DNA of 53,315 bases from the NCBI GenBank assembly GCA_017533425.1, contig JAFXIE010000109.1, positions 1 through 53,315 on the forward strand. The letters run 5' to 3'. Shown piece after piece: positions 22,399 to 38,641 of this stretch. Positions within the stretch are counted from its first letter, which is position 1; each line of letters opens with the position of its first letter. The translations under genes were made by a program, and so were the position numbers. This DNA comes from Clostridia bacterium (lineage in GTDB: Bacteria > Bacillota > Clostridia > Oscillospirales > QAMX01). The notes beneath the pieces were generated by a model. That model saw only the letters and a list, made by a program, of their open reading frames with translations. It did not search any database and was not told the DNA's origin.

Positions 22399-22480
22399 TG
22401 GGGTATTCGCATGATTTTAAAAATATTAGGGAAAATGCGCATAATATGCATAAAAACTGTGCAAGCTCTCTCCTTCCGTC

Positions 22481-22567
22481 TTTTTGCCTTGCGGCAAAAA
22501 ACCGACCTCCCTCGTCAGAGGGAGGTCGGGAAACAAAAAGCCACCCCGGAGGGAATCCGGGGTGGCT
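22481..22567 (-). terminator. three consecutive terminator hairpins downstream of gpmI
   Basis: 22539-22567 agccaccccgga / tccggggtggct. 22502-22529 ccgacctccctc / gagggaggtcgg. 22481-22500 tttttgcc / ggcaaaaa. T-runs follow on the minus strand. Confidence 0.75.
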
Positions 22568-29305: not shown

Positions 29306-29442
29306 AGTTTTTTATACCCCTTTACTATAGACGGATTTGCTTTTGCAGGTATATAATATACCCTCGGCGCTTTTTTTGCAATATGCCAAAAGAGAAAAAT
29401 CGGCGGCGGCGGATATTTGTGCAAATCACTTTAACGATTTAG

Positions 29443-29471
29443 TTGACTAAAGCGCTAAAGTATGGTATGAT
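29443..29471 (+). promoter_or_regulatory. promoter of the his operon
   Basis: TTGACT (29443-29448), 17 nt, TATGAT (29466-29471). Confidence 0.6.
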
Positions 29472-29534
29472 ATCCGGTATATAATAGAGAAGTGTACCGT
29501 CCTGCGGACGGCGGAAAGGATTTGAGCACCGGCT

Positions 29535-30638
29535 ATGAAAGAGACAGAGAAGGTTCTGCGGGGCAGAGAGCTGCTGGAGCTGCGCCTGCGCAGCCTCTAT
29601 GAGCGTTACGGCTATTGCAAATACCGCATGAGCCGATTTGAGGAATACAGCCTCTATCTGGAAAACCGAAATTTCCTCAAGAGCGACCGGATCATCACCT
29701 TTACCGATGACCGCGGCAAGCTTTTGGCCTTGAAGCCGGATATCACCCTCTCCATCGTCAAGGGCGCGGGGCGGGATGCCGCGGCGCGGGTCTATTACAG
29801 CGAGAATATCTTCCGTGCCGCCTCCGGCTCCGATGAGATGCGGGAAATGCGCCAGGTGGGTCTGGAGCATATCGGCCGGGTGGATCTGTACACCGAGAGC
29901 GAGGTGCTCATGCTCGCGCTGGAAAGCCTTGCCGCCGTGGGGCGGGATTACATCATGGGCATTTCCCACCTGGGACTGGTGACGGGACTTCTGGATGCCA
30001 CCGAGCTTCCCGCCGCGGAAAAGGAGAAGCTTTCCCTCTACATCGGCAGTAAAAATGCCCATGAGATCGCGGCGCTGTGCGCCGCCTCGGGCGTCGGTCC
30101 GGCTCTTGCGGAAAAGATCTGCGCCCTTGCCGGCATTTACGGCACCTTCCCGGAGCGCATGGATGCCCTGCGCGGGCTGGTGGTCAACAAATCCACCGAA
30201 TCGGCGGTGGAGGAGCTGTGCGCCCTGTATGAGATCCTTGCGGAGGCGGGCTACGGCGATCGGATCCGGGTGGATTTCTCCGTGGTCAATGATCTTTCCT
30301 ATTATAACGGTATCACCTTCCAGGGCTTTGTGGAGGGCGTGCCCGAGAGCGTGCTTTCCGGCGGCCGGTATGACAATCTGCTCCACCGCATGGGACGCAG
30401 CGGCGAGGCGCTGGGCTTTGCCCTCTATATGGATGCGCTGGAGCGCACCCTGGAGGCGGAGGCGCTGCCGGAGGCGGACATTCTCTTCCTCTATCCGGAG
30501 GATGCGCCGGCGGCGGATGTGGCCAGAGCCGTGCGGCAGCTTTCCCGGGAGGGGCGGGTATACGCCGCCCTGACGGAGCCGGAGAATATGAGCTTCTGCC
30601 GCAGGGTTGTCTATGCGGCGGGGGAGGTGCAGGAATGA
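29535..30638 (+). CDS. hisZ: ATP phosphoribosyltransferase regulatory subunit
   Basis: HisRS-like fold without an anticodon domain (LRSLYERYGY, LALKPDITLSIVK). It sits immediately upstream of a short-form hisG. Confidence 0.9.
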   Translation: MKETEKVLRGRELLELRLRSLYERYGYCKYRMSRFEEYSLYLENRNFLKSDRIITFTDDRGKLLALKPDITLSIVKGAGRDAAARVYYSENIFRAASGSDEMREMRQVGLEHIGRVDLYTESEVLMLALESLAAVGRDYIMGISHLGLVTGLLDATELPAAEKEKLSLYIGSKNAHEIAALCAASGVGPALAEKICALAGIYGTFPERMDALRGLVVNKSTESAVEELCALYEILAEAGYGDRIRVDFSVVNDLSYYNGITFQGFVEGVPESVLSGGRYDNLLHRMGRSGEALGFALYMDALERTLEAEALPEADILFLYPEDAPAADVARAVRQLSREGRVYAALTEPENMSFCRRVVYAAGEVQE

Positions 30639-36355: not shown

Positions 36356-37006
36356 ATGATCGATCTTAACAGCCTGAAATTTGACGAAAAGGGTCTCATT
36401 CCCGCCATTGTGGTGGATGGGGAGAGCGGGCGCGTGCTCACCCTTGCCTATATGAACCGCGAAAGCCTGGAAATCAGCATCGCGGAGGGGCGCACCTGCT
36501 TCTGGTCCCGCTCCCGCAAGGAGCTGTGGCGCAAGGGGGAAACCTCCGGCAACATCCAGCATATCATCCGCATGGAGGCCGACTGCGACGGCGATGCCCT
36601 CACCGTCTATGTCCGCAAGGAGGGGCCGGCCTGCCATCTCGGAGGCGATTCCTGCTTTGCGCGGGAGCTTTGGCGCAACGAGGAGGAGGCGGAGCCCTTC
36701 TCCATCGATGGTCTCGCTGCCCTCATCGCCGAGCGCAAGACGGTGAAAAAAGAGGGCTCCTACACCAACTATCTCTTTGAGAAGGGCATTGACAAAATTC
36801 TCAAAAAGGTGGGAGAGGAGACCACCGAGGTCATCGTCGCCGGCAAGGGCGGCGACCGCGCCGAGACGGTCTATGAGATCGCCGACCTCGCCTATCACGT
36901 TCTCGTGCTCATGGCGCAGATGGATATCTCCTGTGATGAGGTGCGCCGCGAGCTGGCCTCCCGCCATGTCATCGAGCATAAGGTCAAGCAGGAAAAAATG
37001 AAATAA
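36356..37006 (+). CDS. hisIE: bifunctional phosphoribosyl-AMP cyclohydrolase / phosphoribosyl-ATP pyrophosphatase
   Basis: LIPAIVVD...WSRSRKELWRKGETSGN (HisI) plus SYTNYLFEKGIDKILKKVGEE (HisE). Confidence 0.95.
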   Translation: MIDLNSLKFDEKGLIPAIVVDGESGRVLTLAYMNRESLEISIAEGRTCFWSRSRKELWRKGETSGNIQHIIRMEADCDGDALTVYVRKEGPACHLGGDSCFARELWRNEEEAEPFSIDGLAALIAERKTVKKEGSYTNYLFEKGIDKILKKVGEETTEVIVAGKGGDRAETVYEIADLAYHVLVLMAQMDISCDEVRRELASRHVIEHKVKQEKMK

Positions 37007-37018
37007 AATAGACAGAAG

Positions 37019-37055
37019 CACCCCCGGAGAATTTGCCCCCGGGGGTGTTTGATTT
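37019..37055 (+). terminator. his operon terminator
   Basis: cacccccgg / ccgggggtg stem followed by tttgattt. Confidence 0.7.
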
Positions 37056-37071
37056 GCGTCCCCGACTGTCC
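37054..37071. repeat. direct repeat copy 1 (TTGCGTCCCCGACTGTCC)
   Basis: Matches 37367-37384 at 17 of 18 positions, 313 bp away. Confidence 0.8.
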
Positions 37072-37142
37072 AAAAGTAGGGGCGGCAATCTGCCGCCTGC
37101 TTTTCCAATAAATCGATATACGGATAACAAGAAGGGGCTTTC

Positions 37143-37168
37143 GTACCTTTCTTTCGGAAGAAAGGTAC
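37143..37168. repeat. perfect 11-bp-stem palindromic hairpin
   Basis: gtacctttctt-tcgg-aagaaaggtac. Confidence 0.85.
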
Positions 37169-37366
37169 CCCAAAGACCGCCAAAAGGAGGTGGGCTTACG
37201 CCCCCTCCCGAGGATGCCCACCCCCAGACGGATATATCGGCCAATCCCAGCCTCTTGACTCTGGCGCTATGGTACTTGACGGATAAGGCATTCGCCGGGG
37301 GACGGCAGTGCCTGTGCGGATACCACGAAACTTCGGATAGGCGAAATCGTTCTCTCATAGTAGGGA

Positions 37367-37384
37367 TTGCGTCCTCGACTGTCC
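37367..37384. repeat. direct repeat copy 2 (TTGCGTCCTCGACTGTCC)
   Basis: See copy 1 at 37054-37071. Confidence 0.8.
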
Positions 37385-37497
37385 GCACATCTTGCCTCTC
37401 CCCCTGGGAGAGGTGGCCGAGCGCAGCAAGGCCGGAGAGGGAAAAAGAGAGCCCTCTCAGTCGGCTTCGCCGACAGCTCTCCCGGAGGGAGAGCCAA

Positions 37498-37563
37498 GGC
37501 AATAAACGAAACCAATCCGGCCGGAAAGGACTGCTCCTTTCCGCGCCGCGGATTTTTATTGCC
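37498..37563. other. 66-nt nested stem-loop of unknown function
   Basis: Three nested pairings: ggcaataaa/tttattgcc, aatccg/cggatt and ggaaagga-ctgc-tcctttcc. No flanking T-run. Confidence 0.6.
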
Positions 37564-37604
37564 GGAGAAGAGGGAGGATTTGTGCAAGTCTTTTCCACAA
37601 CCGA

Positions 37605-37633
37605 TTGCCATCGGCGGGAAAGTATGCTACAAT
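37605..37633 (+). promoter_or_regulatory. promoter of galT-galK
   Basis: TTGCCA, 17 nt, TGcTACAAT (extended -10). Confidence 0.55.
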
Positions 37634-37663
37634 ATAGGGTATAAAGTATGGAGGTCAATAGCT

Positions 37664-38641
37664 ATGTCTGAACTTCGTTACCATCCCCTGATTGATGATT
37701 GGATCATGATCGCGGCGAGCCGCCAGGGTCGCCCCCAGATGCCCAAGGACTGGTGTCCCTTCTGCCCGGGCTCCGGCAAAGTGCCCGATCAGTTTGACGT
37801 TTTGAAATACGACAACGATTTCCCCGCCCTCTCCCAGGATGCGGAGGAACCCTCCGATGCGCTCTGCGGCCCCCTTTTCCGCAATGCGGAGGCGCACGGC
37901 AAGTGCGAGGTCATTCTCTACTCCCCGGAGCACACCGTCACCCTGCCGGAGCTGCCGGTGCCTCACATCCGCAAGCTGGTGGATCTCTGGTGCGACCGCT
38001 TTGCGGATATCTCCGCAGACCCCAAGGTGAAATATGTCTTCATCTTTGAAAACCGCGGTGCTGCGGTGGGTGTCACCATGCCCCATCCCCACGGCCAGAT
38101 CTACGGCTACCCCTGGGTGCCCAAGAAGATCGAGCTGGAGACGGAAAACTGCGCCAAGTACCACGCAAAGAACGGCCGCTGCCTCATCTGCGACATGCGC
38201 GCCGAGGAGGAGAAGGCGGGTGACCGCGTGGTCATCAAGAACGACAGCTTCACCGTCGTCCTGCCCTATTTCTGTGAGTATCCCTACGGCGTTTACGTCG
38301 TTTCCAATGCCCACAAGCAGTTTATCACCGACCTGACCGACAAGGAGCGCGACGACCTTGCCGCCATCCTGCGGGAAACCGCCGGCACCCTGGACAGCCT
38401 CTTTGGCTTTGCCTTCCCCTACATGATGTGCATGCATCAGGCGCCGGTCAACACCGATAAGGATTACAGCGAGAATTACCATTTCCACATTGAGTTCTTC
38501 CCGCCCATGCGCGCAGCGGACAAGATCAAGTACAATGCCTCCTCCGAGACGGGTGTCTGGGCGCACTGCAACCCCACCTCCCCCGAGGAAAAGGCCGAGG
38601 AGCTCCGCGCAGCCCACGAAAGATTCATGAAGGGTGAATGA
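37664..38641 (+). CDS. galT: galactose-1-phosphate uridylyltransferase (HIT superfamily type)
   Basis: CPFCPGS zinc motif and HPHGQIY (H-x-H-x-Q active site). ATG at 37664 with GGAGG 9 nt upstream. The 99-codon ORF-track extension through the repeat block is rejected. Confidence 0.9.
   Translation: MSELRYHPLIDDWIMIAASRQGRPQMPKDWCPFCPGSGKVPDQFDVLKYDNDFPALSQDAEEPSDALCGPLFRNAEAHGKCEVILYSPEHTVTLPELPVPHIRKLVDLWCDRFADISADPKVKYVFIFENRGAAVGVTMPHPHGQIYGYPWVPKKIELETENCAKYHAKNGRCLICDMRAEEEKAGDRVVIKNDSFTVVLPYFCEYPYGVYVVSNAHKQFITDLTDKERDDLAAILRETAGTLDSLFGFAFPYMMCMHQAPVNTDKDYSENYHFHIEFFPPMRAADKIKYNASSETGVWAHCNPTSPEEKAEELRAAHERFMKGE

Follow-up and report, generated by a model that had tools for sequence, protein, structure and literature searches.

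The 53,315-nt stretch of DNA analysed here (contig JAFXIE010000109.1 of the Clostridia bacterium assembly GCA_017533425.1, order Oscillospirales; hereafter the window) contains a gap of ~650 bases, at positions 37007-37663, that separates hisIE from galT (hereafter the block). The block holds no gene and no recognisable RNA, and is not a single element but a mosaic in which terminators are combined with at least four repeat families unrelated to one another. Its modules, i.e. the GTAG-tagged hairpins REP2 and REP3, the related modules B and C and a longer repeat termed the core, are repeated, palindromic, extragenic in this window and arranged in the manner of bacterial interspersed mosaic elements (BIMEs). 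We consider it likely that non-autonomous palindromic repeats have piled up here, as in a BIME, in a dispensable gap at the end of the his operon. An earlier note on this DNA had compared the block with intergenic repeats of the repetitive extragenic palindrome (REP) kind or of the MITE kind (miniature transposable elements with inverted repeats). The first comparison holds for most of the block, in that REP2, REP3, B/C and the core all recur elsewhere; the notion of one element does not, and the MITE hallmarks, terminal inverted repeats (TIRs) and a target-site duplication (TSD), are absent.

Alternating modules and tagged hairpins

Every module of the block recurs elsewhere except the last hairpin (37498-37563), the sole other copy of which is a diverged version in contig L001 (contigs and loci used for comparison are given as L numbers). 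Aligned by eye, copies of module B yield the consensus TTGCCTCTCCC-NNN-GGGAGAGG-TGG-[variable hairpin]-GAC-GGAGAGGG, and those of module C yield CCCTCTCAG-[variable hairpin]-CAGCTCTCCC-NNN-GGGAGAGCCAAG. C is approximately the reverse complement of B, and B-C (37392-37498) therefore constitutes an inverted doublet, with a gap of 8 nt between the two modules in the window. The doublet folds into one long stem bearing three hairpin caps, its calculated energy being -67.5 kcal/mol (z -5.5) for RNA and -34.6 kcal/mol (z -5.1) for DNA. Counting one genome per species, at least 118 matches to TTGCCTCYCCCNNNGGGAGAGGTGGC were obtained; among the matches listed nearly all belong to Oscillospiraceae, Faecalibacterium, Faecousia, Acutalibacteraceae and other Clostridia, several share one metagenome-assembled genome (MAG), and many lie at contig ends. 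Copies of B/C are also carried by contigs L004-L006 from a viral collection. Where neighbouring modules lie within 200 nt of one another, B and C alternate in 72 of 74 pairs, with gaps clustering at 16-19 nt. The abstract of PMC2817692 defines BIMEs as "regularly spaced REPs in alternating orientations", and the alternation and regular gaps observed here therefore reproduce the defining architecture of a BIME.

The inner hairpins of these modules vary whilst retaining the ability to pair. The 121 copies of B contain 84 distinct inner inserts, with pairing over at least 4 bp in 94%, compared with 35% of shuffled inserts; for C the corresponding values are 86% and 29%. The stems co-vary and, as judged from these sequences, selection acts on those of B and C to keep them paired. 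Compared by eye, the inner inserts look alike within a MAG and unlike between genomes, as would be expected of REPs that evolve together with the genome carrying them. When the block was compared with the remainder of the window by self-BLAST no further copy came to light, and a later cross-search gave a variant B-family module in the - orientation (CCTCCCTC-TGAC-GAGGGAGG...GACGGAAGGAGAGAG) at 22466-22530, in an ORF-poor gap and adjoining a terminator-like hairpin. The 53 kb of the window hold two repeat clusters, at 37054-37498 and 22466-22530, for which extragenic placement was assessed; both are intergenic.

The abstracts of PMC2817692 and PMC3733652 describe REPs as short extragenic imperfect palindromes with a GTAG tag, and both REP2 and REP3 are short palindromes that carry this tag. 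After REP2 comes a T-run on the + strand and CCTACTTTT on the - strand, and the hairpin is terminator-like on both. Exact and stem-compensated copies of REP2 occur in L012, L029, L041, L070, L074, L096, L114, L117 and others, and form inverted doublets in L048, L074, L096 and L114. In the ~1.3 Mb of related DNA compared, GTAGGGGCG gave 44 matches; among those listed, most consist of GTAG plus a hairpin, the stem of which varies between copies yet pairs. REP2 is optional beside the core, being cleanly absent from L214b and L215a. Full copies of REP3 consist of GTAG followed by a GGACAG..CTGTCC stem, and a variant in L083 (GGACCG...CGGTCC) has a compensated stem. The REP3 at 37054-37071 is truncated in the window, and L213, L214 and L215 have the full unit at the equivalent position; together with that at 37360-37384, it brackets the core in direct orientation. 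The 18-nt direct repeat reported in the earlier note at 37054 and 37367 is indeed present, its arms lying 313 nt apart and being identical at 17 of 18 positions; since these are two members of the REP3 family, they do not represent a TSD.

Genes for REP-associated tyrosine transposases (RAYTs) were sought with approximate versions of IS608 TnpA and of E. coli RAYT as bait, with matches then checked against Pfam and NCBIfam. Two RAYT-like open reading frames (ORFs) were found, L162:1498-2058, directly after hisIE, and L010:1616-2170, between gyrB and gyrA. Both contain HUH and YxxNP motifs, and each embeds an in-frame inverted pair of GTAGGGG-plus-hairpin units either side of HUH, the hairpin stems being unrelated between the two ORFs and self-complementary in both. 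The REP2 class of hairpin is therefore physically tied to RAYT-like genes in related genomes.

The hisIE-galT junction itself is not conserved. In relatives L207-L210, the his operons of which are ~85% identical in DNA sequence, all similarity ends at 37008, directly past the hisIE stop codon, and three different downstream neighbours are found among them; at more distant hisIE loci galT lies downstream in none of 80. As the homology of relatives ends at the hisIE stop, the block fills a synteny breakpoint with DNA specific to its lineage. Over 4067 nt, contig L001 matches the window at 100% identity; it diverges abruptly at 37423, in the inner hairpin of module B; L001:4068-4236 then aligns with window positions 37423-37565 with 13 mismatches and 3 gaps in 128 nt, and is unrelated past ~37565. 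This abrupt divergence inside module B therefore indicates either recombination between paralogous repeats or an assembly join at a repeat. At one other locus, L211:1006-2043 (an NCBI metagenome contig), the HisIE-containing product P0001 is 345 aa in length, as against the usual 215-217 aa, and may therefore be a fusion or have a mis-called start.

On the BIME-like explanation, the repeats would have accumulated where insertion is harmless, i.e. past the operon terminator and at a synteny breakpoint, to give the order of hisIE terminator, truncated REP3, REP2, core, second REP3, B-C doublet, terminator-like hairpin and self-sufficient galT promoter. The modules probably spread as single-stranded DNA hairpins by means of an HUH/Y1 enzyme of the RAYT type encoded elsewhere in the genome, and the REP3-core-REP3 assembly may move, or may once have moved, as a single unit.

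Some further occurrences of the B/C modules may be recorded. At L076:831-1290 (a Candidatus Limiplasma MAG) three tandem B modules with a 217-nt period form a higher-order B/C array, and at L139:4771-5134 an array of C-like modules of the GGGGAGCCAAG type lies just downstream of a hisIE gene whose product is 71% identical; this array is an independent accumulation at the same kind of site. Separately, an 18-nt segment of module B (37406-37423, GGGAGAGGTGGCCGAGCG) is identical to the 5' ends at L002:1146-1163 and L003:5599-5616, which by inspection comprise the acceptor and D arm of apparent class II tRNA genes in viral contigs. The window's own tRNA-Ser genes differ from module B.

The core repeat and competing explanations

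The core includes the perfect 11-bp palindrome (arms 37143-37153 and 37158-37168) and all five copies of the hexamer CGGATA found in the block. Copies 85-91% identical to it are present in four short ENA contigs (L212, L213, L214 and L215, the last two with two copies each), in contexts other than that of the window. REP3 units in direct orientation enclose all of these copies, and in L214 and L215 copies lie head-to-tail with REP modules. In six compared copies that otherwise differ by 9-15%, positions 37155-37209 are invariant and 37276-37318 have one variable position. The core is rare, three whole-database protein searches having given only the L212-L215 contigs. Neither TIRs nor a TSD, the features of a MITE, were found for it, and the sole inverted match near its ends, TTTTGCC/GGCAAAA (7 nt), is not compensated among copies. 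BLAST with 37054-37392 against plasmid and phage sequences gave no match, and scans of viral contigs gave none with TTCGCCGACAGCTCTCCC and two invariant core strings; the 18-nt repeat gave two matches in the viral-contig scan, both due to chance and inside unrelated coding DNA. By inspection of its translation, an ORF at L213:3-974 resembles an IS30-family transposase, and is seemingly inserted in a B'-type module, the halves of which (975-1045 and 1420-1490) lie at opposite ends of the contig.

Several observations weigh against the BIME-like explanation. The core has no defined ends and no parent element was found for it, and its two invariant stretches could mark a function. B/C modules lack GTAG and, measuring ~50 nt and comprising two hairpins, exceed classical REPs in length. 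Strict B/C patterns are absent (0 matches) from the 421 kb of relatives' hisIE loci, and the families are therefore patchy and not universally abundant. Both RAYT-like ORFs score below curated cut-offs (~65 bits against NCBIfam REP_Tyr_transpos, cut-off 80; ~20 bits against Pfam Y1_Tnp, cut-off 23). The approximate bait sequences detected no RAYT gene within the 53 kb of the window, and because of this we can only infer mobilisation by a RAYT-type enzyme. Finally, the two open frames that run the length of the block, considered further below, are only partly accounted for by stop-free palindromes.

A broader proposal may also be made, in which the B/C arms, conserved across families, and the inner hairpin, re-invented in each genome with its pairing preserved, would constitute an undescribed structured DNA or RNA element that is Oscillospirales-wide and perhaps co-evolves with RAYT-like enzymes whose ORFs embed a REP pair of their own, and the REP3-bracketed core could be a hairpin-mobilised passenger or an unrecognised non-coding RNA. 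We advance this tentatively, as a possibility of rather low probability.

Structured RNA had already been raised as an alternative in the earlier note. In its more specific form, the core (37101-37359) would be a structured small RNA gene, perhaps on the - strand and ending with GGGAGGGGGCGTAAGCCCACCTCC plus TTTT (~37212 to 37180), and the surrounding REP hairpins would be incidental. The two conserved stretches stand out among the copies, the core has stable folds on both strands (z -2.9 on +, -2.3 on -), and a hairpin followed by a T-run is visible in the sequence of the - strand. However, a search of the whole window against Rfam at the gathering threshold gave no match in the block, a search of the block at E<=10 gave only hairpin-type noise (<=20 bits), and a permissive Rfam search of the L212-L215 copies gave no consistent match. 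Of the 68 predicted pairs just 1 has undergone a compensatory change, and covariation contributes unfavourably (+1.83). By eye, neither strand shows promoter-like hexamers that the copies conserve, and the promoter-like sites that a scan of the block returned, confined to 37605-37658, fall outside the core. The head-to-tail copies with REP modules suit repeat DNA better than an RNA gene, and the extreme rarity of the core in public data argues in the same direction. The structured-RNA reading of the block thus gets no positive support, and we regard an RNA gene in the core as unlikely. A weak Rfam match to His_leader in the block is merely the hisIE terminator hairpin, and ARAGORN found neither tRNA nor tmRNA there.

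Another possibility is that REP3-core-REP3 is a non-autonomous insertion sequence (IS) derivative (PATE-type, of the IS200/IS605 kind, with subterminal direct hairpins) or a decayed IS end, independent of any REP/RAYT system. IS200/IS605 elements have left and right end hairpins with which the bracketing by REP3 can be compared, and the constant position of the core between same-orientation REP3 hairpins, its multiple copies and their differing contexts are all consistent with such an origin. Nevertheless, a parent element with a transposase was found neither in the 1.3 Mb of related DNA nor in plasmid and phage collections, TIRs and a TSD are lacking, and REP3 bears the GTAG tag typical of RAYT-associated REPs. 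The IS30-family gene of L213 appears by inspection to lie within the adjoining B' module and to be unrelated to the core. We accordingly think an IS origin quite improbable.

The CGGATA hexamers occur on the + strand at 37121, 37229, 37280, 37317 and 37334; the earlier note had the count and four of these positions right, and placed the second at 37230. It had also described their number as far above chance. The hexamer is indeed enriched, though modestly: among 5000 shuffles of the block that preserved dinucleotides, 47 (~1%) contained some hexamer in at least five copies and none contained CGGATA that often; across the whole window, eight different hexamers somewhere reach five copies per 220 nt, and CGGATA is over-represented throughout (52 observed vs 22 expected). 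This enrichment, five sites in 220 nt, and the location of the sites upstream of galT are what might recommend the block as a galTK regulatory region or an attenuator-like tail of the his operon, with CGGATA as transcription factor operators. Set against this, the CGGATA-bearing core is found in other contigs with unrelated flanks and in L001 precedes different downstream DNA, whilst at this locus two terminator-like hairpins and >260 nt intervene between the sites and the galT promoter. The spacing is irregular (108, 51, 37 and 17 nt), and just three of the five sites are retained in every core copy. Like the 11-bp palindrome, the CGGATA sites belong to the core repeat, and neither is likely to represent a regulatory array specific to this locus; we consider the operator explanation very improbable.

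Two long ORFs run through the block, 37033-37644 (+) and 36984-37658 (-), and were suspected from the outset to be spurious, a judgement with which the coding tests agree. GC content at codon positions 1/2/3 is 0.57/0.54/0.56 in the block, as against ~0.65/0.43/0.77 in neighbouring genes, the codon log-odds are below zero in all six frames, and neither ORF has a match in Pfam. Substitutions between core copies fall on codon positions as 19/23/18, i.e. without three-base periodicity. Protein-space searches with both long ORFs and the - frame of the core recovered only translations of the same repeats, and the database 'homologues' are repeat translations in either orientation and shifting frames. 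The further suggestion that such repeats generate spurious hypothetical proteins is likewise borne out, database 'proteins' translating exactly these modules. There is one stop-free frame per strand over essentially the entire 657 nt (654 and 630 nt), and in 3000 dinucleotide shuffles none had a second frame as long as that of the block. Inspection shows no stop codon, in any frame, within the conserved segments of modules B and C; the two open frames are therefore partly explained by stop-free GC-rich palindromes, although this is not obviously the whole effect. That one of the ORFs encodes a real low-complexity protein, as the paired open frames and the similar ORFs called in other contigs might suggest, has a negligible probability given the flat codon-position GC, the negative log-odds, the lack of Pfam matches and of periodicity, and homologues that are repeats translated in both orientations.

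Organisation of the hisIE-galT locus

Upstream of the block the identity of hisIE is confirmed by its PRA-CH and PRA-PH domains, and downstream those of galT and galK are confirmed also; the exact sequence of the 325-aa GalT is not on record. The features of the block are collected in Table 1. The palindrome at 37143-37168, the hairpins at 37395-37413, 37460-37474 and 37476-37494, which belong to the B-C doublet, and the 66-nt nested stem-loop at 37498-37563, all listed in the earlier note, were found in the sequence, as was the galT promoter, which begins at 37605 as proposed there.

Table 1. Features of the block between hisIE and galT (window coordinates)
Feature	Position	Strand	Description
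hisIE intrinsic terminator	37019..37056	+	GC-rich hairpin CACCCCCGG...CCGGGGGTG followed by TTTGATTT
REP3, 5'-truncated	37054..37071	+	first arm of the 18-nt direct repeat; full unit GTAGGGACAGGCGTCCYCGACTGTCC
REP2	37076..37100	+	GTAG-tagged hairpin GTAGGGGCGGCA-ATC-TGCCGCC, 7-bp stem
Core	37101..37359		~260 nt; contains the 11-bp palindrome 37143-37168 and all five CGGATA
REP3	37360..37384	+	GTAGGGATTGCGTCCTCGACTGTCC; second arm of the 18-nt direct repeat
Module B	37392..37443	+	TTGCCTCTCCC-CCT-GGGAGAGG-TGG-[inner hairpin CCGAGCGCAGCAAGG]-CC-GGAGAGGG
Module C	37452..37498	+	CCCTCTCAG-[inner hairpin TCGGCTTCGCCGA]-CAGCTCTCCC-GGA-GGGAGAGCCAAG
Long nested hairpin	37498..37563	+	ends with GC-rich stem and TTTTTATT; terminator-like on + strand
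galT promoter	37605..37633	+	TTGCCA, 17-nt spacer, TACAAT with TG extension

On the + strand a hairpin is followed by a T-run, as in intrinsic terminators, at 37034-37047, 37081-37094 and 37540-37552. The first of the terminators in Table 1 (37019-37056) is terminator-like on the - strand too, and the long nested hairpin has a folding energy of -33.1 kcal/mol (z -4.15). The repeats would place another two terminator-like hairpins after the his operon and ahead of the galT promoter, and their net effect here is probably just to increase termination and to insulate galTK from the his operon. The galT promoter scores at 10 of 12 consensus positions, with TG present, and is followed by a Shine-Dalgarno sequence, GGAGG, at 37650-37654 and by the galT ATG at 37664.

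Two further observations concern the window more generally. The region of the galT promoter (37578-37655) is 66% similar over 79 nt to 29415-29493, upstream of an ORF starting at 29535, the strings in common being ATTTGTGCAA... and AAAGTATGNTA..ATAT..GGTATA; this likeness may reflect shared promoter architecture or a shared operator. At 436-507 on the - strand there is an Rfam match to Gut-1 RNA (54.2 bits, gathering score 50).

Relation to known repeat systems and significance

The kind of element described here is well known, the closest likeness being to the REP/BIME sequences (Y/Z subtypes) of Enterobacteria and Pseudomonas. These too are short extragenic palindromes; B and C alternate with regular spacing and often lie just 3' of genes, and REP2 and REP3 carry a 5' GTAG like proteobacterial REPs. 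The differences are that the present host is an Oscillospirales gut Clostridium and not a proteobacterium, that B/C modules are ~50 nt long with two hairpins each and no GTAG, and that the B/C inner hairpin is hypervariable between genomes, although it still pairs, and the abundance of the modules looks patchy. REP doublets forming hairpins (REPINs) and their RAYTs (TnpA_REP, HUH Y1) provide a second comparison, as the inverted doublets found here fold into one long hairpin and the RAYT-like ORFs of related genomes are physically associated with GTAG hairpins. In contrast to REPIN/RAYT systems, however, the hairpin pair lies inside the RAYT-like ORF (two cases) instead of flanking it, the ORFs fall under curated cut-offs, and none was found in the window with the approximate bait sequences.

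Similarities extend to repeats outside the Proteobacteria. The pneumococcal BOX element (boxA-boxB-boxC), from a Firmicute, is like B/C a modular composite intergenic repeat with complementary outer modules and a stable fold, but has no sequence relationship to B/C; moreover BOX has the fixed order A-(B)n-C, whereas B and C here simply alternate. For the core, the comparable class comprises the bcr and MITE-like repeats of the Bacillus cereus group (100-400 nt), with which it shares being low-copy, lineage-restricted, hairpin-rich and intergenic, at a length of 260-310 nt. Unlike these, the core has no TIRs or TSD, and its flanking direct repeats are REP3 units.

No description of these families was found in literature on REP, RAYT or MITE sequences in conjunction with Faecalibacterium, Oscillospiraceae or Firmicutes, and the GTAG/CGTC survey (PMC3733652) leaves Firmicutes and Clostridia unmentioned. 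The element kind is thus familiar, and the families themselves are without a published description that we could find in Oscillospirales or gut Clostridia.

For annotation, the modules account for a group of spurious 'hypothetical proteins' that contain strings such as PLGEVAERSEDGEG, PLSRLRRQLSQRESQG and VGTGVLDCP, and are likely to lie behind many contig breaks in metagenome assemblies of gut Clostridia; recognising them would clean up annotation. The locus itself conceals neither a gene nor a regulator: galTK is served by a promoter of its own, and three terminator-like hairpins are predicted from sequence to insulate it from the his operon. Further work might be worthwhile on the inner hairpin, which is hypervariable but compensated, and on the hairpin pair that the RAYT-like ORFs contain. 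To our knowledge, REP/BIME biology has been worked out almost wholly in Proteobacteria, and an analogous Oscillospirales system with hairpin-embedding RAYT-like genes would extend the REP/BIME model to abundant gut anaerobes and would offer a handle on genome plasticity at operon ends.

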